Below the pieces are notes generated by a model. That model ran no database searches and was not told the origin of the DNA. It saw only the letters and a program-made list of their open reading frames with translations. DNA of 59,852 nt, filler included, from Sphacelaria rigidula (lineage: Eukaryota), in the NCBI GenBank assembly GCA_964200075.2. It is 3 parts of 3 records of this genome, joined end to end, with 100 filler letters (N's around TTAATTAATTAA, not from the genome) between each part and the next. Parts side by side here need not be neighbours in the genome. Positions count along the whole stretch, not along the records: positions 39,975 to 59,852 come from CAXNAA020000597.1; 2 more parts are not named here. One strand, written 5' to 3'. Of this stretch, positions 1 through 59,852 are shown piece by piece; positions within the stretch are counted from its first letter, which is position 1, and each line of letters opens with the position of its first letter. The position numbers and the translations under genes were made by a program.

Positions 1-20
1 GGCCCCCCCCCCCCCCCCCC

Positions 21-19200: not shown

Positions 19201-19206
19201 GTCGCT

Positions 19207-19245
<39 letters not shown>

Positions 19246-19994: not shown

Positions 19995-20002
19995 ATTCAC
20001 AG

Positions 20003-35100: not shown

Positions 35101-35166
35101 AAGGCCACCTTCCACCTTGACATCCTTGGGGTAAAAAAGAATCCGAGCTCTCCTCTTTACACCCAG
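26160..35166 (+). CDS. NSA2: Ribosome biogenesis protein NSA2, exons 1-5 (C-terminal exon beyond contig end)
   Basis: Phase-consistent exons 26160-26230, 32559-32678, 33134-33311, 34332-34418, 34993-35166 encode [103 protein letters not shown], characteristic of NSA2. Confidence 0.97.
27893..28025 (-). mobile_element. SINE family A, 3' fragment
   Basis: cttcctcgagacgggtccgtggtctcgaaggagcaacccatctccccgcggtacacg is homologous to 1935-2040. Confidence 0.7.
28900..29000. repeat. 49-bp tandem duplication
   Basis: cttatgt(g/a)aatacctgatttttcagcaggtataccctatagaacataac occurs twice in tandem with one mismatch. Confidence 0.95.
29065..29870 (-). mobile_element. hAT transposon relic with C-terminal dimerisation-domain trace
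   Basis: aaccagtt/aactgg subterminal repeats at both ends, right end rc agtgttgtgaactgg. Minus frame [23 protein letters not shown]...FSPIRA resembles the hAT dimerisation region (LxWW...YPxL..A). Confidence 0.5.
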
Positions 35167-36885: not shown

Positions 36886-37385
36886 GGCCGCTCCTTACAG
36901 CGGACGAGAAAAAAAATCTGAAGAACTTATTTTATGGAACTTCTACATCTTTTGACGCCTCAAACGAGAGCTGGACGGATTTTGACACCTTGGAATGCCT
37001 TGCTGTACTCGTTGAGCCGGTTCCAGCACACCTGTACATTTTCCCGGTGGTGGCAGTTTTTTCCTTGCCCGAACTTGCAGTTTTCTCGGAGACTGACCGT
37101 TTTTCTCGAAGATCAATCAAGTCCTTAAAAACTTGCGAACTTTTGTGGACTTTCCCGGTCTACGAGAAAAATCACCGGTCTCCGTGAAAAATGCAAGGTT
37201 GGGCGAGGGAAAAACTGTCACAACCGGAAAAATGCGCAGGTGTGCTGGAACTGTCTCAACGAGTACCGCAAGGCATTCCAAGGTGTCAAACTCCGCCTAG
37301 CTAGTTCTCTTTTAGGGCGTGAAATGTCGTAGCTCCAAAAGGCACTTTTCCAGATTTTTATTATTGTCTGCTATAAGGAGCGGCC
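36886..37385. mobile_element. 500-bp foldback MITE, PIF/Harbinger-like
   Basis: TIRs ggccgctccttacagcggac / gtctgctataaggagcggcc. TGA duplicated on both sides (36883-85, 37386-88). The arms stay complementary for ~230 bp. Confidence 0.85.
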
Positions 37386-39561
37386 TGAGCACCCCCCATT
37401 TCATGCATGTTGCAAAAACTACGGAAACAGGCCTACTCCCTGGCGCACAAATGAGGCTTACCGCTTCTAAACGTCGTCATTCATTCTTACGTGGGGTGGA
37501 AAGAGCTGCATATTACGCTACACTTTTGACTCGAGCCTTTTCTAGTAGCGGCGCGTGTCACGATATCGGCCGCCCAGGTCACAACTTCGCGCGGTGAATC
37601 CCAACTACTCGATCTTATACAGGTACGTACGTGTCGTAGCTTTTCGCCTCCAAATAGAATCGGCAGACGTGAACACTTGTTCGAGAGTGGTTTACAATGC
37701 ATACTCAGCCCGTCTGCCAGGTTGCAGGCAATCCGCTGATCATGGCGCACTGTTTTTTTTGTCTGCTTGTAATTTTTCGTGCAGGAACCACAAGATCAAA
37801 GATGATTAGTGTGTATACTTGTGTCTGATCTCGACTTCCTGCGCACGCTTTCCATGGAGACGATTTCGATACCCCAAGTTACTTTAGTATGGAAGACCGC
37901 ACACGATTAGTGATGGTTTAACAGGGTCCTGTGGAGATGAATGCTACCTGAGCGCAAACGTCATGGATCGTGGATTGTGGCATTCGTAGGTTCCATGTAT
38001 CAATAGACGTGCAGACCTTCACTGCGCGCGCCCAGCACGCTGCGATCCTACACCCTTTATTTATTTTCAAGGCGTTGAAATTCATCTGTGCGGTTCTTTG
38101 ATAAGCTTTCCTGTTCTCCGTCAACCGTGCCTCCTTGTCAGCATGAACTACTCGTCTCAACTGTTTGCGATTTTCGCGGTATTTATCCTCTTTCTTTTGA
38201 TTGAAGACAAAACTGCCGACACCGTTGGCACCTTTCTGAATTTTGGTCGGGACAGAAATTCATGAACTTCGCGGAGTAAACCTCAACTGGTTGAGCGCCA
38301 AGCCTCGATTCTCTGCAGTTTCTCCCGTTGATTCGAAGGGGGATGCTATCGGGATATATGATGCCATACTTGAATCAAAGCAATGACGGGCCATTTACTC
38401 GCTGTTGAACTGGGCAAATATGGAGTCCTGAATCTAACCCGGAAATCGAACGAAGTTTTTCCCTCAGACGACCAACATGTTCACATTTGCCTACCCCCAG
38501 CTAGTGCCAGTTCAGACGTGGGCTTTTCGCGCAAGAGCGCGAGCTCAAATAGCGTACGTCCGGGAGATATATTATATTCCTTATTTCAGTCCTAACTTGT
38601 GTGACGGATGGTACAGCAGTGAAGTCTGTAGCGTGGCGTGTACGGCACGGCTCGTGAGTGGGGCCGGTGGATGGTACAGTACAGTTGTGAGCGCGCTTGA
38701 CCCCCCAAATTCGGCGAAATTTTTTTCACCGACCAAAAACACGAAGAGACCGCAAATATTGTTTAGCCCCTGATGATGCACGCCATAAAACCACCCAAAG
38801 TACTTGTGATTTGTGTGGGGTTTCCACTTCACGGTCTTGCATTTTTCTCCTCCCAGCCAACGAACCACGGCGCGCTCGGCTACTCACCGGCGTGTATGTG
38901 TCTAAGCTACAGCTTCTAGCCAGCGTTTCGCGAAAGAAGTTACGGTGATCGAGAAAGTAGCAGAAAAACTTTTCCCACCAGTTGGTTGATCATAAAACTC
39001 GGATTCTGGTGAGATGGAGAATCTCCTGGCACCAAGTTGTAGCTGTGGTTTTGGCGCAGATGATGCAAAAAATCGTATCGCAATCGACGGCCTTGGCAAT
39101 GAGGACTCTGGAAAGCGGTTTGGGCAGCGCAAACAAGCGCCTCCAACCCTCGCGAGTTTCCATGACACGAAAACATGACCGCTGCGCAATGGCCTCAGAA
39201 TAGATTGCACCCATGAATGACTCCTGATACTGGTACAAACGACAGTGGTAATGTAGTGCAGATGACTTTTCACGCCATGAACATGATACTTCATCGGACT
39301 CCGAAGATGTTTGCGTTTCGACAGGAGATGGAAACAAACCGCCATCATGTGCGTGATCCGTCAGTGCGAAGTACGAGCTGGGCCAGTCTAGAGGCGGATT
39401 GGAAGTTTGCAGGCGAATGCGCCGGCCAATATTTAGAGTTGGACCCTGAAATTTGGTATGGACAATGCATACGGCAAAGCAAAAAATCGATAAGAAGCAT
39501 CAGAGTTTTTTCTTTGGTGAGTTAAGGGCGTTTTGCTGATGCCTGAGAACTGATTATTGCA

Positions 39562-39874
39562 CAGGCACCGTAGGTAACGTACCATACCGAGCGTACCCCC
39601 GGTATTTACCGGGGTATCCCATACCGTGGTATGCGTAGGTATCGTAGGTATGACATTTCAAAATGCCGGATTGGGCCGGTACGGTAGGTATTGAAATCTC
39701 GAAAAACCCTGGCATCGTAGGTATCGTAGGTATGAGCTTTCAAAATACCAGATTGGGTGGGTACGGTAGGTATTGGAACCTCGAAATACCGTGGTATCGT
39801 AGGTGTCGTAGGTACGGCATTTCAAAATACCGGATTTGGCGGGTACGGTAAGTATTGAAATCTCGAAATACCGT
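39562..39874. repeat. ~82-bp tandem repeat, at least 3 units (starts ~39621, 39704, 39786, 39868), probably a TE subterminal array running off the contig end
   Basis: Unit ataccgtggtatcgtaggtatcgtaggtatg..tttcaaaataccggatt.ggcgggtacggtaggtattgaaatctcgaa. The element starts caggcaccgtaggt. Confidence 0.85.
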
Positions 39875-39974
39875 NNNNNNNNNNNNNNNNNNNNNNNNNN
39901 NNNNNNNNNNNNNNNNNNTTAATTAATTAANNNNNNNNNNNNNNNNNNNNNNNNNNNNNNNNNNNNNNNNNNNN
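39875..39974. other. Artificial 100-nt contig linker
   Basis: Same N-TTAATTAATTAA-N spacer as at 19895. Confidence 0.95.
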
Positions 39975-40042
39975 AAAGGGATGCGTGGTCAATGGCCAAA
40001 TGACTAAGGCAAGCAACAAATGAGTACCCCTCCCCCCCCCCC
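39975..40042 (-). mobile_element. Short poly-G/C-associated insertion, copy 3 (cut by contig start)
   Basis: aaagggatgcgtggtcaatggccaaatgactaaggcaagcaacaaatgagtac followed by a C run. One mismatch to copy 4 over ~53 nt. Confidence 0.85.
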
Positions 40043-42859
40043 ACCTGGTGGGCGGCTCTAGATGGAGGCGTCACCGGAAGCAACAAAAGCGAAAATATGG
40101 CATTTGCCTTCATCCTATTCACTGAATCAGGTCCATCATGATTGTGCAGGAGACGTGCAACGAAGCTACAAGACAAAACAAATCGACTGACAAACGAGCT
40201 TGACAAGCGCATACACTAAACAGCAAAAATAGTGTAGTAACTTCCTTAGAAACCTTTGAGTGTCAGGCCGACAGAGCAAATTGATATGCAGATTGAAAAT
40301 TATTGCTTGTTTTTTTTCGGTACAGTAATTAATCGGGTGGGCCTAAATGGGTTTCATATTTTCTGCACCACTACGAGAACTACTGAAGTGTTTTGACTGT
40401 TCGACGCACCACTCACAGCAGATGTAACCATTTCTACGCCACCATCATGTTTATTCCAATTGTGTATATCACTATCGGAGATATCGATGACCTGCATGTT
40501 TTACGTTACAGCTGATGGAGGCAACCTGGATATATATATATATATTTATATATATATGGATACCGGTTACGGATACGGAACGATGTATCGTACCGTTCTG
40601 ACATGTAGTCATTTTCAGTATCTTGAGCCTACATTTCAGTTCATTTGTTGTCCGATAACCCAACACTAGGTTTGGCACAAGTCTCGCCTTCATGCCTTGG
40701 ATGCGTTATTTCCGACATATTGGGCACCTCTGCGTTTTGAACCGGTTTTTGAACATTGGCGGACTCAACTTGACAACGTGAGGGGCATATTGAACTCATT
40801 CCCAGTACCTGACGCTGCTACACCATTTCGTTGTTGGCACACGCGGTATGGACGATGTCTACCATCAGGATTCCTGGAGGCGTCGGCGCGGTGTTGCCAT
40901 GGTTCCCGGTGAAGGCGTTTAGACCGTGTCCGTCCTTCACTGCGGCCAAGTACAGATACGATCGCTCGGGACAGAGTTTAAATGAGGTGGGTACTATTTA
41001 TAGGTACAGATGAGTTTGTGGCTAGTGGTTATTTTTTTAGAATACGTTGGGTCATGCAGCATCATTTTGATTGACACCTAGTTAGAATTGGGCTGCAACT
41101 GGTTGAATTGCACAAAATCTTCACTCATATTGTAATACACCTCGCTGTGGAGGCACGGGCCGTAATGTTTCACTCGCGAGTAACTTATGCAACAGTAAAT
41201 GTAGCTTTTCCCCTCGGCAATACGAGGTAGTCTGGTCGCAGTCGGGGGAATATCTTGTGTATTTTGTCGTACCAAACATTATGGCGAGTTTCGTAAGTTC
41301 TGAAGATGCCTCCATTCGGACATGAGTACTTACTTGTGTCCATGGGGGCCCTGAAGCCGTTGAACCTGAAATGAATGATGTACGTGGCACCAGAAAGCAA
41401 ACGAATATATCCGCGTGCGCATGTATTGCGGCCGACATCGATTGCGGCAGGTTATGTTCGCAGGCAAGAAGAAAAACCGGAAAGCCCAAGGAACTGCAGC
41501 TGCCGACACAACAGCTGACATGGACGATAGTGCAGACGATGACGTGTAGTTTTATTACGGGGCTATTAAATCTATGTCGCACCCTGGACCTGTAGCCAAA
41601 GGATACCAAGCCGTAAGGTTTCAGTATATTCGCATGCATGATTGGAGCAGTGGCAGGGGACAGGGGATCCTGGACTGATGGCCCTTTTCCGTGTGGCACC
41701 TTGCTGTCTGGCTCGTGATCTGTCGAGGATCACTCCGAGATAACAGGTTAGAAAAAAGGACTTGTCGAGCACAATGCCAGTGACACTGGGGGAGTCCCTC
41801 GGTGAACGTCGATTGTCCAGATTGTCTGGCAGAGGCTATAGACCCCACTACAGAAGATTTCCGTATTATTGTCGTGCTTTGTCGCTTGAGACCCCTTGCA
41901 TTTGCGCGACGGAAACACACAACACTGACTGAGCTCAAGAGTGTTTGAGACGTCGAACGCCCAGTCATGTTTCAGTATGGTCATGCGGAGACACGTCGAT
42001 AGTTGTCTTTTCTGTGGGTAGATGTTGATCTCCTTCCGATATGATTGATGTCCGTGGTGCGTACTACTTTCCCCAAGTGGCATGCTCTGTTCTACTGGGA
42101 TCAACACGAAAGGGCCGAGGGTTAGGTTGGGACAACACAGTGGAATACCTTGGTATATGTACTCCGAACCACCGTTACGTGTTAGAGAATTGAACGAAGT
42201 TGTTTTCGTTCTCGTTTCATTGTGTAGGCGTCCTGTATTTCCAGCACCGTTTGTCGAGCTTTGGAATCTGTCCGTCAAACCTGTGAACTGTTTGATTTAA
42301 GATTCGTCGGAGCATTCTTGTGGGTTAGCATGTTGCGAGGAACCGTTAGGTCAGCAACTACGATCGCTGGCTATAGTGGCACTTGTCTGCATTATAACGG
42401 TAGCATTGTAGGGACTTCCCAATCCCGAGGGGGACACCTCGCAAGACGCCGCAGCGATGCTGTACAGAACACGTAAACACCGAGTGGTGCCGGACATGGC
42501 GAGTTTCTCACAAGATCGCTTGCAATGCTGCTGCTGAGCCAAATCAACACTTTAACGTTTCTAGTTGGTTCATGTTTTTAATATTGCTGGTTGTTGTCTC
42601 GTCTCCCGATTTCGCGGAGGGTGTGCTGCCACCGACCGTACATTGCTCGAACTGTCGTGTACACCCAGCCCTACCGCAACCCCCTCCCTCAGCGTGATAA
42701 AATTTCAGCTCTCCTTTGGCACCAAAACAGCTTATAACGGCAAGCACTACATCAGTCGATCTCTCAATTGATGTAGGTGTTTCTTGCGGTTCTTTGCATA
42801 GTATTCTGTGTCCCTTCTGCTCCCATTAGACTGGTACTATAGTAGAACCTTAAGTACGA

Positions 42860-42959
42860 CCCTCCCGGAGGGGGTGCTCCGTCTCGAAAGGGATGCGTGG
42901 TCAATGGTCAAATGACTAAGGCAAGCAACAAATGAGTACGCCCCCCCCTCCCGGAGGGG
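42860..42959 (-). mobile_element. Short poly-G/C-associated insertion, copy 4, with 14-bp TSD
   Basis: ccctcccggagggg at 42860-42873 and 42946-42959 flanks ccgtctcgaaagggatgcgtggtcaatggtcaaatgactaaggcaagcaacaaatgagtacg(C)n. Confidence 0.85.
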
Positions 42960-44954
42960 TGGTGTTGAGCCCCTTTGGACGAGGAGTCCAATTTCACGAA
43001 GTGAATTTGGTTTCTGCTGCGGGTAAAATTTCGACTAACCGTTTTTTTGCGACTTTTTTTTTGCTAGATTCTTTCTCTGAAACCTCAATGATTTCGTTTT
43101 TCCGGGGAAAAAAACCAAACCTTCTCCACGGGGCACCTGGACACACAGCAGTTGCTGCTGATTATCTAGTATCATCCTCCAAATCGAAGTCTTGCGTGAG
43201 AACGCCCAGCGTGCAGCTGCTTGACGCGACCACTGCGTTTTGCCAGTTACCCTTTCCCACGTACCCGACAAGGGGGCAACATTCCTGTACAGACAGTAGC
43301 AATGCTAACGGATCTGACGTCCTGACAGTCTGGCAGCCGGCAAGGTGGTTATGACGGTGTTCTTCTGGCGATATCAACCTACAGTGCTCTGGAGCAGAGT
43401 TTGCAGGTGAATATTCTGGAGATTGCCACACCTGCAGTTCGCCCAGATGTTGCGTATTTTTTTCACGATAACACTGAGTAACACCACATACATTTTCATG
43501 TGGAAATGTATCAGACACTGCACTACAAATGGAGTGTTCTGCGCACAGTGTGCTGTGTGTTTTGTCGCCCCACTTTTTGGACGCCGGTCTCCATCTTTCG
43601 GTATATGTGGGCGCACCAGCCGCGGCTGTGTTACCATACAGCTTCGCCTCAGATACAGGCAGCCATTCTAGCGGCGGAGGCGGCCTTTCACTACTGCGTG
43701 CGCCACCTGGGGTAAACGCACGCTGTAACTGCAACATGGACGGCTTTACAAAATGTGACGTGGCGATATTGCGCGTAACGAGGGGTGATATCCTGCGTAC
43801 ATGTTGGCCGCAGGTACAAGCGGCTGCGTTCATGATGTGGCGAACTTCAAAGGACAACGCCAAATCAATGCAGGACAGGGATAGGCTAAGGATGTGACGT
43901 CCTGCAGTGTACTTTGTCGCCCTGCACCCTGCCGCTGTGCAGTGAGCAGGTAATACCGCCGAACGCGTCACGCTGCGGTTGCTACGCAGTGTCGAACACA
44001 GCAGGAATCAGTATATTTTATGTACGGTACTTGTACATGGATCTGTGCTCTGAAGATCGATGCGCACACAGACAGCAACTGCTATCGCTGTATATCGATC
44101 AGCGGGGTACCCCCCCCCCCCCTCCTCAAATAGGGTATCCAGGGGTCCCCCCCTCCCCCCCTACGGTCTCAGAATGAGGTTTGGGCGACCTGGGGGGTGG
44201 TGGTGCCGTCATTTCCCGATATGGGACCCCTCGGCCCAGCGTGCAGCTGCTTGACGCTTGACGCTGTCTCATGTCTGCGCGAGGAACAGCAGCTTGAAAC
44301 TTATGGTCTACAGCCTACCGGGAAGCACATCGTGTACGTGAACTTGAAAACAGGCATGGTAGCGGCTGGAACTTGTGCGGGACGACCTAGCGGGAATTTG
44401 TCGGGTAACGGCTCGCGTCTCAGCGCCGGCTTGCTGCGGGCCCTTGCGAATGTGGGGCGACGACGATATAATGAACACGATTCATGCCTCAATGCAACTT
44501 TACGCTTCCGTGCTTCGACACATCACCATACCCCGGGTGCGTGCGGCAGACCTTCATTCTAGAGCAGAAGGGCCCAGCCGATATCACTCCGGTTTCACCG
44601 CCGAAATCCGAGACCGCAACATCACAAACACCGGAATAAATCGAGATTGGAAGTGCCCTGGGCACAGGGCAATCTATAAATGAAACAATCACGATACGTG
44701 GAGGATCGAGCGTAACGTGATCTGGATCTACGGATGATCAGGAACCGACTGCGCCGCATGCCGGATGCACTGTACAGTTGACTTAATCGCACACCCTGGA
44801 CAAAAGAAAACACTATCGAAAACTATACTATGTACAGTTTTGAATATTGCGCCTATTGCAGCAGACAATAGATTCCATACTGTACGCGGTACATTTATTT
44901 ACAATAAAATCTATTGTCCAGGGTGTGCTTAATCGCATCGGATCAAGAATCTGA

Positions 44955-47334
44955 TTATTGGGCACAAGCGTTTGTTTCTCCTTGCGCATGGAGTTGTCCT
45001 GCCCGATCACCGTGGTTTCCAAATAGCTGCCTCGCCAGACACGCGACAGGCGGTGCTATTTCTGATGCTTTCGATGAAGCCTCCTTAACCAGCCACATGG
45101 TTCCCCAACGGTGCAGTTTCCGACGATGAATTGGCACGCTCAGATATCCTAATCTCTCCTATGAACCACAGGCTCCGGGGTACATGTGTGTGTTGGGTGG
45201 TCTCCAGCTACAAATTGGAAAGTAACTTCAGGCTGTATAGGGGATGAACGGATCCGCTGGGTATCCGCTGGGCATCACCCCCTCCCTGCCCCCTCAAATC
45301 ACCAAACTTCAAACTTCGAAGCGTTGGTGTTATAACTTCAATATATGGGCACCTTCGACTCTGCGCATATCCCTGGCGGCAGAGAAAGTCGTTGTTTTCT
45401 TCGCACCAAAAACCGTTCTCATATCTCCGCAGTTCTCCGTACTGGGCATCTGATGCGGACGCCTTCCGTAGTCATAATAAACTATCTACCCAAAAAGAGG
45501 TATAAGGAAATCAAAGAATAAAACCGGACGCACAAAAATTCTCTCAGACACGATACAAATAAAATAAACAAATAAAATAAATAATTCTAACCTCATAGTT
45601 TTCGTTACCACAGCCCAGGGTTTCCACTTAACACCCGAGGCCAAACATAAATGGCGCCAAACTCAAGAATCAGGATCATCGATAAAGTACGGATAGATAT
45701 TTCATACTTGGATTCAAGTATTGTGACGACATTCACGCTCTTGTAAGTTAGTGTGCATTTCGCGGAATCATCGAGCGCGCACACACAGTACACCATAATG
45801 CACTTGACCCGTGAAAGAGACATGCTCCCGTGAGGGTTGGGGCTCGTAAATTTGATGAATAATGAAAAGCCACACAAGGATATGACATTCCCTTTTTCGA
45901 ATTCATTCAGGAAATCCCTAGCCCATCCATTGAAATGCTCATCGTTGCGTGTTCTCACGTATTTCGTAAGTCGTTTCTTGGAAGAGATGAAGGGCTCCTG
46001 AAGCCGGTCGCCCCGGTGGCCCAGTTTGTAACCTCGAAACCTTCTGACGGTTGGGTCGGGGGTTCGAATCTTGGTGCAGTCACACGATCTGGAATTTTTC
46101 CTCACACGATGCCCAACAGTGGATAACGACTAGGTCGTGGGTACACAAAATTCGACTTATTCATAGTCGACGAGGAAAAGGGACCGCTGAACCCCTCTTC
46201 TAGCGATAAAAAATAGGGCGAGTACAACAGGAGGAAGGTGGAGTACTGAAAACGAAGAGAAAGAACTCCTGTGTTGTGTTGGCCTTCTTCCTGTGTGACC
46301 CCGACTGATGCGTCCACATACATCGAACGGTGTAGACTGGTTCAGAATTCAGAATAGTTGGAATGACAACATACAAAACACACATCATGGCAACCCGAAC
46401 CTCAGCAAATATTTGTGCACCCTTACCGTAGCACCGCTCAGAACACACAATCTTTGATGTGCCTGGTAGTTATCGAAAAAACTATACAAGGATACATGCG
46501 GAGCGTTTTTGGTCACGACATTTCGATGCTCTCCGTATTTCCGTGGCCGCCCGAAAATGTTTTTTTAAGACCGTCTTGTATGGCAACCAATCCGTGTTTG
46601 TACAAACATGAGGACATCAGTCCGCCTACATCTGATTTTCTCCCGTGGATTGATTTTTCGGACCCCAGTCCGCTGGGCAATGTTTTCCCCTTAGCTCTGA
46701 GGAAACCAGATCAAATGTCCGATTCTCTGGACGCTGACTTTTGATTTATCACCTTTCTGCATCGGATGTAGACGGAATGAAATCCCCATATTTGTACAAA
46801 TACGGATTAATTGTTTGCCATACAAGACGCTCTTACATGCCGAATTGCGGAGGAATAGCTGACTCTTCAATTTCTAGTCAAGTTAAGTTCAAGCCCACCA
46901 CGTTCACATATTCTGAAGATATTTACCGCTTTAGCCCCAACGCCAGTGATAGGACGAAACCAGACGTCTAATTAGGCAGCGGGTGTTGGATGTACCTGTC
47001 GCCAACCGTATTTCGTGACCTCACCCACGGCGATCGAGTGACGGGATAACGGAGAAAACGTGGCGGTGGCATGTTCCGCCGCTTCAAGGTTTTCCCGTTC
47101 TAGCATCGTCGATGTCGTCGACGGTTTGCCGCTGCTATGACGGAGTGGAGTGTCCAGCGGCATCTTCTGGAGTAGAAGACTTTTTTGCTCATATACAACC
47201 GGTACGATTTCCCATGCACGCCCTAGAATGCTGCGAGAGCTCCGCTTGGCGGTCGTCATGCGCAGACTGGTGATTGTTAAGACCTCAAGTGCACAGGAAT
47301 TTGCCGACATTGTTGGCCCGGTGTGATACCGCAT
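44955..47334 (-). CDS. Small two-exon hypothetical protein (~155-180 aa)
   Basis: Exon 47334 (or ATG at 47310/47259)-46996 with cag|gtacat donor, joined in phase 0 to exon 45158-44955 (catag acceptor, TAA). The junction reads EVTKYGWRQ|ERLGYLSVPIHRRKLHRWG. No family recognised. Confidence 0.55.
46003..46323 (+). mobile_element. tRNA-derived SINE, family B
   Basis: A-box-like tggcccagtttg, B box ggttcgaatct (46061-46071), ~320 bp, ending in a (ACAT)n-like tail. Confidence 0.75.
46568..46833. mobile_element. MITE with long imperfect TIRs and TA flanks (Tc1/mariner- or PIF-like)
   Basis: agaccgtcttgtatggcaa..atccgtgtttgtacaaa at the left end pairs with tttgtacaaatacggat..ttgccatacaagacgctct at the right end. 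TA on both sides. Confidence 0.8.
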
Positions 47335-47453
47335 GCCTGCTCTTGGGAAGAAGAGCGTGCAGTACTCGTCATCTGAACGAAACTCCGAACAGTTGTGAAT
47401 TTACTCATGCTGGCGTTATGTTCTGGCCATACGTTCTTACTTGGTCTCAGAGC

Positions 47454-50400
47454 ATGCGCGAACTGTCTAACAGGCAAACGGGCTGTATCGTACACCAGGT
47501 TTTCACACTTCGCATGATACTGTAGTAGTCGCCCCATCCAGTCCATGACGCTCCTACTGTGTGTCTGCACCCTGTCTCCTTGGTTCCCTCCAGTACAACT
47601 ATATTTCCTCAGGGTACAGTCTGCTCTGTCGAAAGATCCCGTATAACCGTGTCTCAACAAACAGGACGATCTGTCGAGCGCCGTTGCTGAGGCCGTCAGT
47701 GACTACGTCCGTCTCCGCGGCTTAAACGGCCTGAGCCCCGACGTGAAAAAATGGGGTTTCCCTCCAAGTCCCTCTGCGTTTCTGAATTCCGGGCTTCCAC
47801 GGACCCATGGGAGTGGCTCCCTCCCACGTGGTCTGACTCCCGATCCCGTCGGCTCTACAGGATCCCTGCAACGACTGTGTGGCGTCTCATCAAGGGGCGG
47901 AGGCCCGATGAGGGAGGCCAACGATATACCTCGGCCAACGTGGGAAGAATATGGGTGCGAGGGGTCGTATTGTCAGGTTTTATCGTGCGATGATGAAAGG
48001 ACAGAGGGCAACGCGGCAGGGGTTTGTGTGGTCAATATCCGTCCTGAATCAGGTGCTACTAAGGAGGTCGGCGACGGTGTTGATCGTGATGGTGCAAGCC
48101 ATTTGAAAAGCGCGGGAAAGGATACAGAATATTTCAAAGACGGGCAAGGGGTAAGCGATGCGCGGGACAGCACCTTCGTCGGGTCTTGGAGTACACCGCA
48201 GCTAGCTCAGCACCAGACTCACACTCCTGAGGGGATATCGGCAGAATTGTCGCTAACCAACGGGAAGCAGGTTATTTTAGTGTGTTCTTGAGTGGTTTCC
48301 CGGAATATGTCGTCGACGGATATCTATGGACGTGGCGGGTTATCATCTTGGAGCGGGGGCTTGAACGCCGACAGGGGCAATCATTCAATTAAATGTTTCA
48401 TGAGTTTGAAATAGATGGCATGTATCACACATGCGCATTTCACCGTCAGCCAAGGCTGCTGCTACAGCGCAAGGAGTACGCGGTACATAGCTCACGTTGC
48501 GGGCACTGTGCGGGACTGTTGTCAACGCATCCTCTAGTAGCCATTGCCACCTACACATAAGGTTGGACTTGTGCAATTTGTTCCATCCGTGCCCTGCTGT
48601 CAAGGAAAACACAAGAATCCAGCTGGTGTCCGATGCATCTTCCTTTGCTTCAGCTTTATGACGGTCACACAAGATCTTGTCAATAATCTCACAATGTGTT
48701 CTTTCTCACCACCCGCACGTGCCTTGGAAATCTTTGTCCGTGCACATCATCCTCTTGCCCACTCCCTGGTTCTCGATTTCGAAATTTCTCGTTCTAACTT
48801 AACCAGCTGTTGCGCTCGCTGAGGGCACAAGGCAAAGTCGCCGACAGCCGTCGTTGTCACCGCTCCTCGCGAGCGTCTAGCCTTGCGGGCGACCCGAGGC
48901 GGACCACACAATGCAGAAGAAATCTTAGAAGACCATTTTCGCCCCCAGATGAGTGGGATAACACGGGCTTATTCACGGTTGCTCCACGGCCGAAGTCCGT
49001 ACCTAGCAAGACTCACGGACAACGAGCGCTAAGGCATACGCTCGCTGCACCAGTTTCTCCCGCTCTGTCAAACTCCGCGAGTGCTTCTAGTATTCTTCAC
49101 AGTCAAGGTGCTAATACCAGGGGAACATGTACCCGTAGCCCAGGCGAATCTACCACGTCTGAGGATGCGTTTTCTCCTTCAGGGAGAGGGGGGAGTGATT
49201 TTGAGGGAGGGATTCGTGCGTGGCCAAGACGTAGGCGTATATACGGTGGAGGGGGCGGGGATGCGGCGGTGGAGTTCTTGGACGTTAGGGAAGCGGCGCT
49301 TGTGAGCGTTGCGGAGGCACTGGCAAGGAGGGCACTGCCTTGGCAGGCGCAGTTGTGTCCGCGGGCGTTGCAGGACTTCGAAATCGCTAGGACCAAGGTA
49401 GGTGTGCCGCTTTGTGGGTTCTTGCCAAGTGACGGGTACCTATTCTCTGAAACGGCACTCTGCGGATACTTCACGAGAGAATAGAAGACATCGTAGCTGT
49501 GCCGGAAAACGATTTTACAGCAGCACCACTGGGCTTCAATCATCGCTCGCAAGAGCTAGTGGCCATACTAACCGGGCATACTAATATCGTCGCTGCACAC
49601 CTCATGTCTGGACGAGCTTAACGACATCCTCCTTATTACGGAAATAAAAACGTTGCCAACCGCGGCGATTCACGCGCAGATCTTCCACAAAATGCGGCGC
49701 AAGCAGAGAGAGGCGTATGAGGGTCACATCAAGGACAACCTGCGCGATCTCCTTTTATGGGAAGAGCAGTCCTGGATGACGTTCGTTAGGAGTGAGGATT
49801 CTGCCTTCAATGGCACTTTGAAGAAGGTAGCCGCGGACACGTGTCGCAGACGCGCATTGATCGATCGCCAGATGTCATAGGTTAATGGTCGCAATATGGA
49901 ATTCCATAAGTGCGTTCAGAATGAGAATAGTTGGAACATGCTGCACAACGGGTTGGCGTTCATACACCTACAGCAAATGAAGCCAACGATCATGGATCAA
50001 GATTGTAGCAGATTGAACACTTTTTTCTGTTTGTGGACGAGACGTTCGTGTACCCCGAGGCAAGAAAGTTCCCCATATTTATCACGTACAACTTGGGTGC
50101 AGGAACCCTCCCCGCCTCCCACCCTGCCTCCCGGAGCATTTTCTGCTCGGAGAGCGCGACGGGGGTACTAGCAGTCGTCTGACAACATTCTTCAGGGAGC
50201 CTGTGAACGATAGGAAGAGCAGAGGAGGAATTAACTAATGATCAGCTGTTTGGACGCGGAACTACAAGACACTCGCCTTGTGTTTCACCGCCTGTGCACC
50301 GTTCCCCCCGCCACCGGTTCTTTGAACTTCGCAGATCAAATCCGCTGCAAGGAGTTGGGAACATTCATATAATGCTGACCTTTCCAATCGAACGGCGAAA

Positions 50401-53400
50401 AGCGACGAAAGAGTCAAAAGAGCCGAGGTACGCGCTTGGACAACAGATCGGTTTACTTCGGTTCCATAGGCAACGTCGACGACGAGGAATTCGTAGTTTC
50501 AGTAAGGTGCGCATACATGCAGAGGTACTTGCGCAGGTACACATACTATTGTGGATTGTCATGCATATTGCGATCAGTGCAGCGTGTCCTCAAAAAGGGC
50601 CCGTGACACTCGTCCGTTGCTCCCCCACTTTGGAAATGGCACCATACTTTTATCGAGTGAAGACATGCGTGACGACGACAGGCGCCGTCAACAGAACATA
50701 TCCTAGCTGGTACATGACTCATGCTGACGCATGGGCCCAACAAAGAACGAAAGGCACAGTTGTACGTTATAGGCAATATAACGGATGTGTCCGCTCTTGT
50801 ATCTGAAACTCTCGGAATCAGGGCCGCAACTGGTACAACATCGACCAGTTTGAGAGCAACGAGGCAGACCGGGCCTGGCGGCATCAAAGATACATCCTCA
50901 CCGACCTGATGTGGGATGCACCAGCAGTGCTGCAGACGAAAGAGGTGGGCATATGCGTCAATGTCAAAACAATATCCCTCAGCGCATGCAAGGAACATAC
51001 TCTAGAAAAGAGCACGGAGACGGTGCAAAAAATCTACAGCTGCTGTCGTTGGTGCTGAGTAAAAATGACAACACCGCCTGTTCTTGTGAACTAAACCTGG
51101 GTCTTGTGAACTGAACCTGGGCCACCAGGCGGAGGATCAAAGGGTAGGGACCGCTCTTGAACAGTGGGGAGACAAACAAAGTGTGGCAACAAAGCACGAA
51201 GATGCTTTGGGGTGGCTGGAAGCCGCGGGTGCCAGCGCGATTACTCCGGAGGTGCTTTCCTGGTGAGTACGCTGACTTATCATCGCCAATGCCTTCCCGT
51301 AGCGTCTGTACTGCAAAGCGGTCCGTGTCTTCGATTGTTCGGCAGATTGTTTTCGACCCCTCTGGAGTGGGGCTGTCAGGAACGCCGTCGGTATATAAAA
51401 TTCCGCACGCAGTAAAGAATTGCCATCCATCCCGTGATCCTCCACGTCCGCACTCAAAGGGAGCAGTTCGACAAATGGACGAAACCCATGTCGATTTTCT
51501 GGTAAATTACAACAAGTTGACCGCTTCATCATCAACGAGAATAAAGACACGGACCTTGATGGCATCATCGTCGATATTGAAGTAGGTGGTCTCCACTTTC
51601 ATAGTGCGAAAATAGACATGGACAATAGTCACAGGCAACCCTTTGGCTGCGAATCTTTTAGCATATTTTCTGAACGACCGCCGGTATATGAAAATTAAGT
51701 AAAACATACTTCGCATTGATTTCAGATGAACTAAAATGAAGAAAACTGTTCCTACCAGATGTTTCGCGACGGTACTACATTTCCCATCCATAACTACCCT
51801 TGATAGGTGATAGCTTCACCGATTTAACTATGAAATATTGGCAGGTGGGAAAGAGACATTTGGAAGATAACCATCGACGAGGAAAGTAGGGCGGTGAAAG
51901 CTCGTGCTGAGGAGCATCAAAGAAGCTCGGAAAGGCGAGCTCGCATGTTGTACGTCGCCTCGCTGCGCACACATAATGCAAGGGCTATTCCGTTGTAACC
52001 GAAGCTGCTGCTATCATTTTCGAATCGCTCCGGACCGATCTTCGAACGCGCATTGAGAGCCGGTGTTTGTCGTGATTACGAAATAAGGATGCGTCGATGT
52101 ATGGTCGAAGTTCCCATACCTAACCGGGTAGATAAGGCAGAGATGGAGAATGATTGTCCGTGTTCGATTTCGATTACATTGTAAGATCGCACGAGGTACG
52201 TACTCCGAATCCTCTACCGTGCCATTAGTTTCCCCTTTTTGCCGTTTTTGTTGTATTCGGCTGTGGACTTGCGGCGAACTTTGCTGTGCCCAACTGCTCA
52301 GGTACAGGAGCGTGCTTCGGTCGGTAGGGGAGACTGAAAAACGACAGCGCCTGCTTGTGGCCGAGGCGTGGAATATTCAAGGGTGGGTGTCGGTGGGCAT
52401 GCACAAACTGGTGCAGCAAACGCTACGGGCTTTGGTTCGCTACTGTACCAACCCCCACGCTGTGAGTGTGATCCCGACTGCACCAGTGACAGCAGAAAGT
52501 GACATCGCGGGCGTTTACGATTGATGGCCACCGTACAGTCGGTTATGACACCCGCTCGTCGTCGCTATTCACTAATTTGCCAAGAGACATATGGGCTCAA
52601 TTACTTGCAATCATTCTGAGAGCTCCAAGTATGTGGCAACGATGATCCAGGGCTTGAGAAATCCTTGCCGACACTGGTCCTAACCGGTACTAGGGATCTA
52701 CCACTGCTGCCCCAAACATGGACAAAACATTTGTAACGGCTACGTCACGTAACAGTAAGCCAGTTGTATCCATACCAATCTCCGACAAGCGTCTAAATCA
52801 GATGTACGCCGGCAAGCTTTTATTTTCATTTATTTATATATTTGTCGCAATTTGAACCCCTCCCCTTCCTCAGGACGAGTCCGTGTTCTGAAGGGATCAA
52901 CCCATCTCTCTCCGGTACTTGCCTAACTCAAACGTCTCTATCACTGAGGAAGAGTGATCATGACCTAGAGGGAATATTCTCACCAATGATTGGAACGAGC
53001 ACTTTTGTCAAAACGTCGTGTTGCAATTCCCATTACGAAACGATCTACGGCAAAGTCTTGCGAGTAACCAAAGCTTCCGGCCTGAATAATTTCTTGTTGG
53101 GCGTAGCGCTCGGCATCATGCGAAGTCAAGTTGGCTCACGAAGCGATGCTCTGTCAGCGTGCGTAGCACTGCGGAATGTGTCGGTCGGGCCCTCGGGCCG
53201 TCAGCATATCCGATTGCATATGAATAAGACAGATGCGCCTCGCTGGCGCGGTCGCCGCTTCAGCGACTCCAAATGTTCCGGTTGTGATACGGCAGTGTTT
53301 TGGAAACAGAATATTAGTTTTCGAGACATCATCATGAAGTTCCACCACCCTTCATGTCGATATCAAAAGAGATAAATCAATGAGGCACACATGATTGGTC

Positions 53401-55987
53401 AAAAGCTAAAGTTATGATGTCTATTTGACCAATATTTCTTGGTTGACGCCTAATGCCAACCATACCATTGGAGCGGACGACGGAGTTTTGAACGTCAATG
53501 TCCTATCGCTTTGTTCGGCGACCAAGTTTCTAAGGAATCCCTTGAAACAAGTCTGACAAAAATAACGTAACCCACCGCGTGATGCCATCCATGTTCAACA
53601 TTATCTCCGGCAGTCCAACGGGCCATGGTTGACATCAGAGTCGACGAACATTGTTGACCAATCGTATTTCATGAATTCTATATTTGGCCCGTCAGAAAAA
53701 CTGCGGGCCATTTTATCGCTTTCTTACATGCTGTGTGAATGCAAACCCATTCTATTCTGATCATTCCTCCGCTGTTGGCACAAGCTTGTTCTCTAGCTTC
53801 AGTCCATCGTGATTACGCTGACATAGTGCGCCGGAGCCGGCAGAATGACGGGCGATTGTCTTTACCCGATATACTCCGGCCGTTAACTCGAACGGTATTG
53901 ATACAACTTTGATTCCTCCTTGAAATGCGGTAGGTGCACAACGTCGACATACTATATCAAACATTGACTGAACGGAGCTGTTTCCCCCTCATCATCAAGT
54001 AGGTTCGTAGTGTTCTGTGGGAGACTCGCGAGGCGGCCGAATTTTCCGCCGCTGCACGGGCGGCCTCTGCAGCACAACGCGCTAGTGATTCCCGGGAGAT
54101 GAAGAATACCCTCCGCGCTTACAAGAAAACGGTCCGCACGCACAAACAAGACGGACATCAGGTGCGGCTCTGTCATGGGTATCCTTAGGGTCACACGAGA
54201 GAGCGCGATGAACTGCTGGTGTTTCTCAACCCTCGGCAGCGAAGCAAGTAATCTTGACTGCAGAAGCATTTTGTATTGGCATGAACGAGACAAAAAATGA
54301 CAAACTTGATTATTTTGCAGGTAAGTTGCGAATTTAGCTTCTCCGGAGGGATATCTGATATCTATAATGGGCGCGCGATATCCGACTCTACGGTCGATCA
54401 AGTTCCAGTGCCGTCGGGGGTGCTGTATACCCCCATACATGCCCTCCACCCCTTGTCTAACTGTCGCTGTGGCGGATCATTTCGTCGTGAGGGACCACCA
54501 AGAAGTGTATCCGTGTGAACTCACCGAGCACTATATATTTGCATAGGCGGAGAAAAGGCGTGCGAGAGCGGAGGATGAGGAGAGGAACAGGGCCGCTGAT
54601 CAGGTGTTATCAGGGCTGAGAGAAGCTACACTGGCAAAATCTTCGGAAGCTAAGGCACACTTCAAGGAGAGGAGGTGAGGGGTGATGCGCCCATCTATAT
54701 CTGGGCGACCGATACCCCGAACTACGTCGGGAACCTTTCCGGGGCTTCACGTATGGTAATGTCACATCGCGTGAAGACAGTCCATTGTTTCAGAAATACC
54801 CTTTGTATAGGTGCAACACGCGCGCATTCTCGTCGGAAGCCTCTCGAGAAAAAACGTTTACAACACTCACGGGGCGGTACAGTATCCTATGCTCTAAATA
54901 CTTTTTTCATCGCCCCCCTCGCCCGGAGTGATGAGAACGTTCTTGTTGAGGGTTTCGAATGTTCGACACTGTGCCCAAGCTAAACCGTTCTTTCTGCCAA
55001 TCGACCTCCAACCACAATGATTCCCCCTCCTCTGCGGGAAACAGGGCCCGGGCGCTACTTCTACGAGAAGAAGAGGACCGGCGGTCGACGGCGTATCGCG
55101 AAGAAGCGACGATTCTGGCTAGGGAGACAAGCAAGGAAGCCGAGAGGGTAGCCTCTGCCGTGTTGGGAAGGAGAGTCGAAGAGGAGGAGCAAGCCATTGC
55201 TGAGGTGGGACAAGAGCAAACGCTTGAGCTTCAGAGGTACACGTATGTTCGATCCCTAATAGCGAGCGACTAGTGTCTTCTTGAGCGCGATCGATACCCC
55301 TCTTGATGTGTAATTTTGTGTATACAAGAGCACCTTCTTGCATCAGAGATCTCCGGTATACTGCGAGGAAAGGGCCAAAACCTTCCCCTGGGACAGATTT
55401 TTCGCACTACTTTGGGGTACACATCTGAGGCGGTATTGCAAACCCGGGTATTGTTGCAGCATGCACAGCAAAATGTGATGAAAGTGTACTGCAGTGCGCA
55501 TTATCCACGTGTAGAGGTGAACAGTTAACATGAAAATCGGGCGCTTTTGTATATCGAGATACACGGGTCACGCGAGTCGTTGGAGCCTCGTTACATGCTT
55601 TCCCTTCGTCCGGGCAGTACAAACGCGCCTTGCGCCGAACCCACTTCAGTGGACACCTGTGCAGCTACTCTACTCGGGAGTGCACAGTGCTTCTGATTGA
55701 TTGCGCGTATTTCATCGATGCAGTAATGTGGGATGTACAGAACCTTCCTTTACGCAATATGGACAGGTAAGCGTCGTGTCCGGCAGTAGCGACCAATATA
55801 TTGGATTTGTAGTCCCTGGATATGCACAGCGATGCACATGGCTCGGGCTATTCTCACTGCCCAGCACCAACGATATACCGCAGGTCGCTGTTGCCACTGC
55901 TGCCTGTGAAGAGGAGCAGACTAGATCTGATGGCCGAAACGCCCTCTTCGATGCAATGATGGTTCGGGAGAAAGATACTCATGACAG
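47454..55987 (+). CDS. Large multi-exon hypothetical protein, disordered N-terminal part and coiled-coil-like C-terminal part (3' end beyond contig)
   Basis: Phase-consistent exons 47454-47498 (tentative), 47665-48270, 48807-49397, 49680-49826, 50335-50427, 51983-52062, 52302-52382, 53107-53158, 54547-54674, 55045-55204/55236, 55884-55987. E/R/A/K-rich helical peptides such as AEKRRARAEDEERNRAADQV. Exon structure at 55200-55880 is unresolved. Confidence 0.75.
50660..51791 (-). pseudogene. Decayed CDC7-like Ser/Thr kinase, antisense within an intron
   Basis: Frame 51791-50979 has a single internal stop (51507-51509). Ordered motif traces: IVHVYFRTMKVETTYFN (VIb), FILVDD (VII), ~85-aa insert, HLRSNRAGTRGFQPPQSIF (VIII; CDC7 has RANRAGTRGFRAPEVL). 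A shifted frame then gives YCFDIDAYA (IX) and LLGPCVSM..PARICSVDGACRRH (XI). Confidence 0.6.
52843..52925 (-). mobile_element. SINE family A, 3' fragment
   Basis: tttgaacccctccccttcctcaggacgagtccgtgttctgaagggatcaacccatctctc is near-identical to 1928-1990. Confidence 0.8.
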
Positions 55988-56629
55988 GTGATGAAACACG
56001 GTTGACTTATACCCTTGTGCATGAGATGATGAGAGACACCCGAGACAGGATATCGATGTTGTGAGCGTCTGGTCACCTGACATGTTCGAACACACACCGG
56101 TATGCTCGAGGTCAGAAGCACTCTGTCTGTGCGGCACGCTAGGTTTTGCACGTAGCGGAAACATAGAAATGAAGCAATTCCGCCGACAGGGTATACAAAA
56201 GAGGTACCGATAGCTATTGGTGAAGCTTCAATTGTCGAACTGCTGTCAGACATGAGTCTACTGCTGGATGGTATTATAATAGTGTTACTTATTGAAAAAC
56301 TATATATTTCTCTAGCAGTTTGGATCAATATAAGGGTCTGATGTGGGCCTTTACCCGCAGGCTGACTCAATCTTATGTCAGTTGCCGTCGTTTACATTAA
56401 TTAATTATCCCTAAAACCCGGGATATTGAGTTCATGTCTGATACTATCAAAACTGCTGTGAGTGTTGACATAATATACAGACTAGTCTGCACACGTTGTA
56501 AGTGGTGATGCAGCATAAAGACTAGTCGGTGGGCTATGCACAAGGCATTGAACTGGAAGCTTAGCCCTACACCAGCGAAATATTACCCCGTACTGTGATC
56601 AAGTTTTGATCCAGCGGCTGCGGAGTTAT

Positions 56630-59600
56630 ACCCAGAGTTGGGACGCTGTCACGAAAAACACATCGCCGGGTATGAGACACCAGCGAGTGAGTGCCAGGTT
56701 CGGACTGGAGCTAGCAGCCGACGCTGGCTATCGCGGCTGAAGCCATGCCTGGAGACCAAGGTGCAAGGCATGTACCTATATAGATGGACCAAGGAAAAAC
56801 TTGGGCAGCAGGACACATTACTCGCACGAAAGATTAGAAAGAGGGCCAGGTCAGAGCGTAAGACCGCGTAGCTGCAGATGGAGCTTGTGCTAGGTCCCAA
56901 ACAGGGTAGCTGAAAGTGGCGACCTAAAACGCTCGTAAAATGTCCCTCAGCGGACAGAACGGGGTTGGCCATACCGAGCCGAGGTGGTTTTGGAACACGC
57001 AAACCAGCGGGTTTGGGGTCGTAAAACTGAGTTCTCTGCAGCGAGATCCCGCGTCTTCTCCTGCGGGGTGGAAAGGGGAAAGAAAATGGCTAGATAACAT
57101 GGGGTTGGGTTGGCGGTCAAGGAGCCGATCATGAACAAGGCTGCGTGAACATCAGCGATCATCATCGAGCACCTGAACTCGACGAGATTCAACCTCACGG
57201 GCAATTCGAATGCCACCAGTTTCACACTTGCCTTTGCCCACGGCCCCTGCTGAGTCGAGAGAAGCGTGGGACATGTGCTGGGCTGAGTTGGACAGCACTT
57301 TCTCGACAATGATCACCTGCTGATAGACGCCAACGCAAGGATTGGGGTAAGAACATGAGAGCAGGATAAAAATTCATCAGTGATATAGGGCAAGGACTCC
57401 CGGGCTAGCGACATCAGGGACACGGCACAGCTACAACTTGCAGGTGACAACGGGCTTGCCCTCGTCAAGGCGTGCTCCACCCCTACGGGAGGCAAGAGCC
57501 GTTCCTTGGACAAGGAACATATTTGCTATATTATCACACGGCAAGCACACCGTCAGCTTGTTCGAAGTACGACCGTCCGCCTCTAACCGCCCAACTCGTC
57601 GGACTCAGATCACAACATCGTGTGAGCCACATCGCGAATCGTTGACCAATTCGCACGCAACACACATCGGCAAATACCCTTTGGGCTTGAATCCACCGAT
57701 AGGCGACAAAACATTTGGCACCGACAGACGTGGGAGATTTCCGCCATCGAGCTCAGAAAGACCAATGCCAGAGACACCGTCGGTGAACCGACCGGAAACT
57801 TTGCCGACATGTAACCAAGGTCCGTGGGGATAAATACCTTGCATCCGAACCGACGAGCCTGCGTGTACAAGGGTGGTTGAAGAAGTTGCGATCCGGGTCG
57901 AGTTCGGAGAGATCTGGAATGAGTAAGAGAGGTCGAGGTTGGCGATACGCGTTAGGCCGAATTATTCCCCAGCATGACACACCCTGCGAGAACGCGCACA
58001 ATGCTCAGAGAGGTGATCCAAGCTGAGTTAGGAAGGTAGCTGGATGGGTATCCGAAGCAACCGACGGAGTACACTACACTTGGGAATATGAGAGTCTGGT
58101 ACGTTAATCTGAAAGATGGACTGCGGCCGGCGAGAATGAAGCTAGAGAATGAGCAGTACATCAAGGATGAGGAGGAAAGACTGCTACGACACTAGGATCC
58201 CATCCGTAAATAATGGAAGAGCTACTTCTCTACTTTTCTGAATGAAGCATCAACCACTATTCACCCAACTATCTTCGAGAGCATAACGCCGGGGCCGAAA
58301 CCTGTCACTTGGAGATCCTCCAACCCTGCATGAAACAAAAAAAAACACCGACAGCCGTAGGTGAGCCGAAGGTAACGACAACGCGGTAGGACCGGATGAG
58401 CTACATATCCTCAAACCTGCAGTAGCCTTCGTGGTTCCCGTACCACTTACATAGCGTTATCGTTGGTGTGTGAGCGTATAGTGAGGTGCCGCAAGACTGG
58501 AAGGGTGCCACTGTCACAGTGCGGCACAAGAAAAAGGAAGGAAGAACCGAGCACGGTAACCGCAGGGGTATCTTCCTCGAGGCGCATGCTGTTAAACGTA
58601 TCCTTGAAGTCGCAGCCAACAAGCTCGGCGTCTTCTGTGAGAAGACAGGGGGTTTCGTGAAGGAACAGCGGAGATTTCGACGCCAACGATCGACCGGCGA
58701 CATGATGTTCCTCCTACGCCGAATGCAGGAGTTGGGACCTACAAGCGTGTCTCAATGAACATGTGCTTCATCGACCTGCCGAAGACTTACAACTTTGTAG
58801 ACGACACGCTTTTGTGGGAAGGAGTTGCCCGTTTCGAAGTCACGTTACGGATGATCAGGATCATCGATATGTTTCACAGCGGCATGCGACCTGGGCTATA
58901 GCTGAATAATGGCAAGCTATGCGAGTAGTCCCACGTCTGCTGGAGAATCAGGCATGGATGCACGTCATCCCCATTACTGTTCAAGATATTCAGCGCGGCG
59001 TTGGACGATATGATGTTACAGCATCTCGCAGCAGACCCGGCCATCGTCACAGACTTTGTATACATGGATGGTGCGCCATAAAATGAAGGTAGCAACGCCC
59101 TGGAAGAGACGCCGCTGGAGAGGGTGTAGCGCGCAGTGTAAGGAATGCCGTACGCGGATGACGAAGGCATGATGTCGAGGTCCACAGACGGGCTTACTGG
59201 GGTGACGGTGGCAGTGGTATCCGAGGTTGATTTGATTTGATTTGATTGGTTATCGCACTTTACTCGGATACCAAGACAGACTTCATGCGCCTGTGACCGA
59301 TACTCAGCTCCCCAGGGAGTGTACCGGACATCATGGCGACGTGCTGATAAGTAGACAACTGATTTCGTAAATCTTGGTGGTGTGTCAGCGCAGACGCGAA
59401 TATTTACATCGAAATCATGCGCCGCATTAGCGCTGCGAGGACACGCGTCTGAAACTATAGTTTCTGGCTCTACAATCGGCCCAACGCCATTTCTACCTCG
59501 AAATCCGGTCGCTCGAAGCGGAGGTGGTGAAAGCGATCCTGTACAAGTACAGATGTGCTACGTGGACGCTGCCCTCACAGAGGCTCAACCACTTACTTAT

Positions 59601-59852
59601 CGCCCATCACAAGATGTATCTATGAACATCCGATTTCTGGGAAATTGATCGCAGTGAACTGAAGGCAATTTCATGCAGAGCTGTGCTGGAGATGACGGAA
59701 TGCGAGTCTATCGAGATCACTATTCTCAAGCGCCAACTTTTGTTCGCGGGGGGGGGGGGGGGCGTACTCATTTGTGGGGAACGGCCATACCACGTCGATA
59801 GCACCACATCCCGTCCGCTCTGTGAAGTTCGCGGGGGGGGGGGGGGGCGATC
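56630..59852 (+). mobile_element. Decayed RTE-clade LINE (AP endonuclease + RT), intronic; 5' boundary approximate
   Basis: WKGATVTVRHKKKEGRTEHGNRRGIFLEAHAVKRIL...EQRRFRRQRSTGDMMFLLRRMQELG (58498-58737), CFIDLPKTYNFVD (~58764), IRHGCTSSPLLFKIF (~58946), YADD (59151-59162). Many stops and frameshifts. Confidence 0.9.
59778..59829 (+). pseudogene. 5S rRNA 5'-half retro-fragment (approximately nt 2-53)
   Basis: GGAACGGCCATACCACGTCGATAGCACCACATCCCGTCCGCTCTGTGAAGTT matches the 5' half of eukaryotic (brown-algal-like, from memory) 5S rRNA and stops at GAAGTT, before the rest of the internal promoter. Confidence 0.85.

Follow-up and report, generated by a model that had tools for sequence, protein, structure and literature searches.

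An antisense 5S rRNA fragment joined to the 3′ terminus of a C-run LINE within one target-site duplication in a brown alga: a candidate for twin priming on two RNAs

The window, by which we mean the whole 59,852-nucleotide stretch of Sphacelaria rigidula DNA analysed here, joins three contigs (A to C; 1–19894, 19995–39874 and 39975–59852, of 19894, 19880 and 19878 nt) through artificial linkers (N44-TTAATTAATTAA-N44, at 19895–19994 and 39875–39974), and no feature described below reads across either join. At the true end of contig C lie two direct repeats on the plus strand, each reading GTTCGC-G15-CG (59742–59764 and 59827–59849), with only ATC (59850–59852) after the second; as an earlier note on this DNA had claimed, the copies are identical, at 23 of 23 positions (sequence inspection; self-BLAST of the window, E = 2.3e-5 for the pair), and the first is also found in public read contigs (X1 and X4). 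Between them stand TACTCATTTGT (59765–59775), a single G (59776) and a segment running from GGGAACGGCCATACC to GTGAAGTT (59777–59829), which prove to be the end of a LINE, an extra base and the 5′ half of a 5S rRNA. Neighbouring blocks have letters in common: G59764 belongs both to the first repeat and to the element end, and the same GTT closes the 5S piece at 59829 and opens the second repeat, a 3-nt microhomology. We read the repeats as the left and right copies of a target-site duplication, one 23/23 duplication thus enclosing the whole LINE and 5S composite, of which the homopolymer makes up 15 of the 23 bases, only CGC and CG are duplicated outside the homopolymer and the 5S (to which the GTT may belong), and the right flank past the second copy is 3 nt long.

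The DNA leading up to the first repeat (58707–59741, plus strand) contains a decayed LINE reverse transcriptase (RT), broken by stops and frameshifts. By tblastn, 58707–59120 aligns at 24.5% identity (E = 5.7e-5) with the protein of L017, a LINE copy described below, and three-frame translation gives RT-like blocks, including ...YADD..., that end in ...ILKRQLLFAG at the G-run. The target is an old LINE pseudogene, in line with the earlier reading of it as an old, putatively RTE, LINE coding region, and the contig's last three bases (59850–59852) would continue it. By self-BLAST the last 2.85 kb occurs only once in the window, so that there is no paralogue from which to read an empty site; a protein search with the C-terminal 82 residues of the target (stop as X) found nothing, and Pfam assigned no family to the 10 longest open reading frames (ORFs) of the window.

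The first piece between the repeats (59764–59775, minus strand) is the last 11–12 nt of a LINE that ends at a C-run. Counting G59764 it reads GTACTCATTTGT; its reverse complement, ACAAATGAGTAC, includes the TGA stop codon and is identical to the 3′ terminus that is invariant in all eight copies of our alignment (A1). Every one of these copies ends ...CAAATGAGTAC and passes into a C-run of 8–19 bases with at most one interruption, a single G standing between terminus and run in five of the eight. The G15-C-GTACTCATTTGT of the chimera therefore has the terminus of all eight aligned copies and the G-run-C junction of five, which bears out the claim that the 12-nt piece is the shared end of a 'poly-G family', placed at its canonical junction with a G-run. 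Within the window, GTACTCATTTG occurs four times exactly and five times at ≤1 mismatch, against 1.13 expected, and every exact copy abuts a G/C-run. So short a piece would be the product of an abortive first-strand cDNA.

The identity of the family emerged from a metagenome scan for a motif that the earlier note had named, G6-N0-2-GTACTCATTTG. It yielded 42 loci, two of them true LINE copies (L004 and L017) and neither with 5S sequence next to it; in the other 40 the sequence does not go on as LINE, and we set them aside as what look like chance matches. On the strand opposite to the scan motif, L004 and L017 carry ORFs of 1253 and 1426 aa, both with Exo_endo_phos (E = 6.7e-13) and RVT_1 (E = 1.1e-30) domains (Pfam) and a Cys/His motif near the C-terminus. 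Both end ...ASNK, with a TGA stop 4 nt before the element terminus (...AAC AAA TGA GTAC): the 3′ UTR is almost absent, and there is no poly(A). Among solved structures the protein is closest to LINE-1 ORF2p (E about 3e-22), with R2 proteins next, and the nearest named proteins, at 59–66% identity, come from Ectocarpus sp. CCAP 1310/34, which points to a brown alga or a near relative as the most likely host. With both domains in one ORF, truncated copies of 44–65 nt in the window and a duplication at 42860/42946, these sequences identify the 'poly-G family' as the 3′ end of a non-LTR retrotransposon with an AP endonuclease and an RT.

Two further copies of this LINE, L043 (JBDWQI010000325.1) and L044 (CBRFFM010000043.1), lie in bacterial MAG contigs, one titled Sulfitobacter sp., which are probably algal contamination of bacterial bins; searching the two mis-binned MAGs with the chimera DNA returned LINE-end matches only. 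Two diverged relatives of the LINE in one MAG likewise have C-rich 3′ flanks. A viral contig scan gave 0 matches. Folding of the last 113 nt of the LINE gave no evidence for a 3′ stem-loop (z-score −0.57), and Rfam searches of four LINE-bearing loci returned sub-threshold miRNA/sRNA noise only, with no small-RNA chimera. In the literature searched on LINEs and 5S rRNA in brown algae we found no account of a C-run-tailed LINE or of algal 5S chimeras.

Three fragments of the family lie elsewhere in the window, all on the plus strand and all defined through alignment A1: a diverged 44-nt 3′ fragment preceded by C18 and followed by ACCCCTCCCC (21–64), the 3′ end with which contig C opens, leading into CCCT-C11 (39975–40027), and a 5′-truncated copy of about 65 nt followed by G-C8 (42873–42939), which by tblastn matches the C-terminal 20 residues of the L004 protein at 100% identity. 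This last copy is flanked by the duplication CCCTCCCGGAGGGG (42860–42873 and 42946–42959), and since the duplication begins with the C-run, the run must at least in part be target sequence carried in the duplication; the 3′ run is longer than the 5′ run (C8 versus C3), the few extra Cs reflecting either a short tail or slippage. With 14–17 bp duplicated at this copy, run-containing duplications of such a size can be taken as normal for the family. The sequence just upstream of two 5′-truncated copies is similar (ACTATAGTAGAAC at window 42838–42850, ACTACAGTAGAAC at about 340–360 of L043), a likeness that may be chance or may mark a repeat beside which the LINE tends to sit.

The same behaviour bears on how the two G15 runs arose. 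The earlier note had proposed that the run expanded in both copies of the repeat; we find this unparsimonious, because two runs are unlikely to have grown independently to exactly 15 bases and the LINE evidently seeks such runs, and a G15 already present in the target and copied with it into the target-site duplication is the better explanation.

Two other places in the window have homopolymers in related arrangements. At 19751–19832 a 48-nt segment (AAAAAAATGCGAGG...GGTGTTGTC) lies between C10 on the left and G8-A-G15 on the right; here the paired runs are inverted, whereas the LINE fragments are flanked by direct pairs. At 44100–44165 a sequence ending ...GGGGTAC is followed by C13 and two C7 runs, and may be the 3′ end of another GTAC-ending family.

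The second piece between the repeats (59777–59829, plus strand) corresponds to positions about 1–53 of 5S rRNA and is antisense to the LINE piece. When the segment was run against the Rfam 5S model (RF00001), as had been suggested, the match scored 26.8 bits and placed model position 1 at 59777; E was 0.012 when 2.85 kb was searched and 0.25 when the search took in the entire window. The score is below the gathering score of 38 bits because only half a molecule is present, and a test for a full-length 5S gene failed; the real match is confined to the first ~53 model positions, the rest of the Rfam alignment crossing the G-run at low confidence. The segment is a fragment rather than a gene. All 28 of the 5S-type read contigs listed, which come from four runs and are the longest ones rather than the best-matching, align to it from 59777 or 59778 as far as 59828 to 59830, each with 2–5 base differences. 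The alignment of these contigs, together with an Rfam match that starts at position 1, supports the reading of the segment as 5S-derived.

Both boundaries of the piece can be placed closely. On the left, homology begins at 59777 in six listed contigs and at 59778 in the other 22, so that one or two extra Gs precede the 5S and not necessarily two: the earlier note was right that extra G is present and too definite about its number. This G (59776, possibly also 59777), placed by where 5S homology begins, would be an untemplated base added on reaching the 5′ end of an RNA template. None of the 28 extends leftward into the 12-nt LINE piece. On the right, the loose ends of the listed contigs past 59828/59829 go on as ...AAGCGGCGTCGGGCC...TAGTAC..., by eye the next part of the Rfam 5S consensus. 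Real 5S copies thus read GAAGTT+AAGC... (loose end at 59829) or GAAGT+CAAGC... (59828), unlike the chimera, and the divergence after GAAGTT agrees with two statements of the earlier note, that sense 5S runs from its 5′ end to GAAGTT and that the final GTT is common to 5S and repeat. The segment therefore consists of the 5′-most ~53 nt of the organism's own 5S rRNA, with one or two extra Gs in front.

Elsewhere in the 59.8-kb window, Rfam (at gathering and E-value thresholds) and ARAGORN detected no further 5S, tRNA or snRNA piece. A minus-strand stretch (707–736) of L009, an unrelated metagenome contig, had appeared as a possible relative of the chimera in sharing the 18-mer GTACTCATTTGTGGGGAA; it has no 5S continuation and lies in G-rich low-complexity DNA next to a (AAAATGAAGGAGTA)n satellite, and we judged the match a coincidence. 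The read data hold many 5S-like sequences: several thousand distinct read contigs fall on a 1.25-kb stretch that includes 59777–59829 (3,968 in X1 alone), those of 5S type that are listed have about single-copy depth and upstream flanks that are only about half conserved, some lose the 5S match at position 34 or 47, and X5 shows 5S-derived tandem units of ~90 nt. Sequence of this kind appears widely dispersed or rearranged in the genome. We also considered a tandem array of an 85-bp unit, given joints from 59829 to 59773, 59778 and 59784; these fit ordinary tandem 5S copies, and the reading was dropped because an X1 contig ends at 59773 where the model predicts 59771.

The stretch is represented in five public sequencing runs (X1–X5) from two studies, one labelled 'algae metagenome', and four of the runs supplied the read contigs compared here. 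Contigs of single-copy depth, starting 5.7 kb upstream, cross the first G15 and reach TACTCATTT: one from X1 has 0 differences and ends at 59773, one from X4, in the other study, has 2 base differences and 1 gap and ends at 59775, and there is no fork at CG/T in either. The left junction is therefore real and common to two data sets. Each of the two breaks off within the 12-nt piece or immediately past it, which implies that the k=31 read graph forks there, and in X4 a contig of single-copy depth (29.8) goes on after 59775 as TCTTG, then CGC and a G-run, with no 5S. This alternative looks like a 17–18-nt LINE fragment between the same kind of repeats; the fork could stem from an allele or a paralogous site, from a second module in series, or from other LINE copies that happen to have (T)CGC-G14/15-CG as well. 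No contig among those listed runs from 59775 into the 5S, or from the 5S on into the second G15 (59829–59833), a finding that neither supports nor refutes the chimera. The caveat of the contig end remains: among the contigs listed, the left junction is the one that is present.

These data are what a misassembly, or a locus more complex than the one assembled, might also produce. The contig could follow a path through a read graph tangled by G15 runs and by LINE ends and 5S copies in their thousands, and the true structure may be a plain 17–18-nt LINE fragment between duplications, or several modules in series. The position of the chimera is in keeping with this, as are the starts of contig A at GG-C18 with a LINE fragment and of contig C inside a LINE end, the stops at 59773/59775 with the single-copy X4 continuation, and an X3 contig that diverges after 59718 (24 letters unaligned). 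Yet the inner junctions hold specific non-G letters (TTTGT-GGGGAACGG; GAAGTT-CGC-G15-CG-ATC) that must exist in reads, so that a poly-G sequencing artefact cannot explain them; the left junction is present, unforked, in two studies; and the geometry, with the 5S 5′ end at a junction, a microhomology and a duplication, is too orderly for an assembly accident and matches a published class of insertions, at least as that class is set out in the part of the source drawn on here (PMC13174262). We regard this explanation as unlikely.

The arrangement is clearest on the LINE sense strand (the minus strand of the window), which reads the duplication CG-C15-GCGAAC, antisense 5S from position ~53 down to 1, one or two Cs, ACAAATGAGTA(CG) and the duplication again. 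The 5S is thus sense on the plus strand and the LINE on the minus strand, with the 5′ end of the 5S RNA at the internal junction. This opposite polarity excludes a continuous cDNA jumping between RNAs, which would give the two pieces a common orientation, such as U6/L1 chimeras have. It disposes in the same way of a template jump from 5S to the element RNA, one of two routes offered in the earlier note: the strand that carries antisense 5S carries the element in sense, and the 5S cDNA can therefore have joined only the first-strand cDNA of the element or a DNA end. The inner boundary is also informative. As it coincides with RNA position 1, an RNA template is favoured over a captured gene fragment; by our own estimate, a random DNA fragment would start exactly there in roughly 2–3 chances in 120.

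Polarity likewise excludes a 5S-headed SINE. SINEs derived from 5S (SINE3-like) contain the 5′ part of 5S and a LINE 3′ end; here the two are in opposite orientation, there is a single copy as far as seen, and they form no transcribable unit. A many-copy SINE or composite with a 5S head and a LINE tail might have been expected from the several thousand read contigs with 5S-like sequence at about single-copy depth, and Ectocarpus has abundant LINE-dependent non-autonomous elements whose head origin is given as unknown in the portion of the survey consulted (PMC12477816). But with this polarity one RNA could not carry both a pol III 5S head and a LINE 3′ recognition end, the 28 listed 5S contigs that fail to reach the LINE piece and the two true LINE copies that lack 5S give it no member, and the LINE tail is only 12 nt; we hold this explanation to be highly improbable.

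In twin priming, both 3′ ends of a staggered break prime the RT, giving two cDNAs in opposite orientation. We propose, at a probability of about 0.55, that the locus records one abortive LINE integration in which the second end was primed on 5S rRNA, that is, twin priming on two RNAs. The LINE terminus lies at the outer junction in its canonical G-run context and the 5S is antisense with its 5′ end innermost; opposite polarity, a single duplication and the 3-nt microhomology at the 5S priming point fit together under this reading. Twin priming was the other route offered in the earlier note, and it agrees both with the strand geometry and with the human 5S/LINE-1 chimeras in so far as the part of the report drawn on here describes them (PMC13174262).

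Given the observed parts, strands and boundaries, the identity of the LINE and the left junction in reads, we infer the order of events, RNA as the template of the 5S piece and the LINE's own RT as the enzyme of both syntheses. A staggered break would have opened at a pre-existing G15 run inside the old LINE pseudogene, and the top-strand 3′ end (...G15-CG) would have primed on the terminus of the LINE RNA, of which only ~12 nt were copied. The bottom-strand 3′ end (...GCGAAC) may have paired its AAC with the GUU that lies near position 51–53 of the abundant 5S rRNA, and the cDNA begun there would have been extended to the 5′ end of the RNA (run-off), with one or two untemplated bases added. 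Joining of the two short cDNAs and filling of the gaps would then leave a 23-bp target-site duplication containing the whole run.

The RNA step could be replaced by repair. An abortive LINE insertion may have been healed by end-joining that captured free 5S cDNA or DNA as filler, not primed from the target end; a LINE cDNA of 12 nt does suggest a failed reaction and a break needing repair, and 5S DNA and RNA look abundant, all 28 pieces listed besides the locus's own four contigs being of 5S type. Random filler would not, however, be expected to have its outer end at a 3-nt match to the target and its inner end at RNA position 1, and staggered nicks, rather than the repair of a blunt break, typically leave a duplication of 23 bp. 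We consider filler capture decidedly unlikely and keep to priming on 5S rRNA from the second end. The broader suggestion of the earlier note, that this RT captures cellular RNA at G-run breaks, is a weak one, with one case among eight copies.

Provided that the junctions are real, the capture of a 5S 5′ half in antisense when LINE integration fails is not confined to mammalian L1 but would extend to a stramenopile alga and its distantly related endonuclease-RT LINE, which would argue that two-end priming and the availability of 5S RNA are general to target-primed reverse transcription. The more unusual side result is that the LINE 3′ terminus always abuts a C-run and that duplications can contain the run. 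Such a LINE may explain both an excess of long G/C runs and the fragmentation of the assembly: the window has 35 overlapping G10 matches against 0.07 expected and 18 G/C runs of at least 7, and assembly seems to break at these long runs. Of the six contig ends, three coincide with a long C/G run and/or a LINE 3′ end, namely the start of contig A (1–20, C18), the start of contig C (39975–40043) and its end (59833–59852, G15).

We suggest, tentatively and as a doubtful proposition, that this LINE lineage uses C/G homopolymers as L1 uses A/T: a 3′ end formed by a G-run would prime on a C-ended RNA, the run would be carried in the duplication, and short abortive insertions and twin priming on small RNAs would be common. 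Were this so, each insertion would make a second run and hence a new target, and very short insertions (12–65 nt) would seed G/C runs and dispersed 5S halves that break contigs.

The C-run behaviour of the algal LINE resembles, by analogy, the target choice of RTE-type LINEs, which in the part of that study drawn on here insert next to a homopolymer, with a 3′ microsatellite that correlates with the first base of the duplication (PMC6007223). The likeness extends to a single endonuclease-RT ORF, a near-absent 3′ UTR, the lack of poly(A) and a target beside a homopolymer; the run here is C/G and not T, and the algal LINE is likened to RTE by these features and not by clade. In Ectocarpus, CRE, RTE, RTE-X and unknown LINE clades are listed, in a text that is silent on tails in the sections consulted (PMC12477816).

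For the composite itself, the nearest counterpart is a set of 27 human 5S/LINE-1 chimeras in which, in the part of the account that deals with them, the 5S is typically antisense, begins where it meets the LINE and is truncated at position 46 or 90, with duplications of 7–17 bp in 20 of the 27 (PMC13174262). For antisense small-RNA chimeras, among which 5S is predominantly antisense like tRNA pieces, the same account proposes twin priming (PMC13174262). The algal locus agrees in its antisense 5S, in a target-site duplication around the composite and in a cut in the first half of the molecule (~53, against 46 in humans), and differs in having a non-L1 LINE without poly(A), a G/C homopolymer in place of TT/AAAA, a LINE part of only 12 nt and a duplication of 23 bp rather than 7–17 bp. 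In LINE-1 twin priming with 5′ inversion, as presented there, the same LINE RNA is used twice, whereas here the second template would be 5S rRNA; in U6/LINE-1 chimeras a single event, leaving a single duplication, likewise links a small RNA to a LINE 3′ part, but the small RNA stands in sense with the LINE, so that the template switching or RNA ligation open to them is excluded by the antisense 5S found here (PMC13174262). Architecture and mechanism are therefore already described for human LINE-1, as far as the part of that account drawn on here goes (PMC13174262); what is new in the alga is the host, the LINE lineage, the G/C-run context and the extreme shortness of the LINE part.
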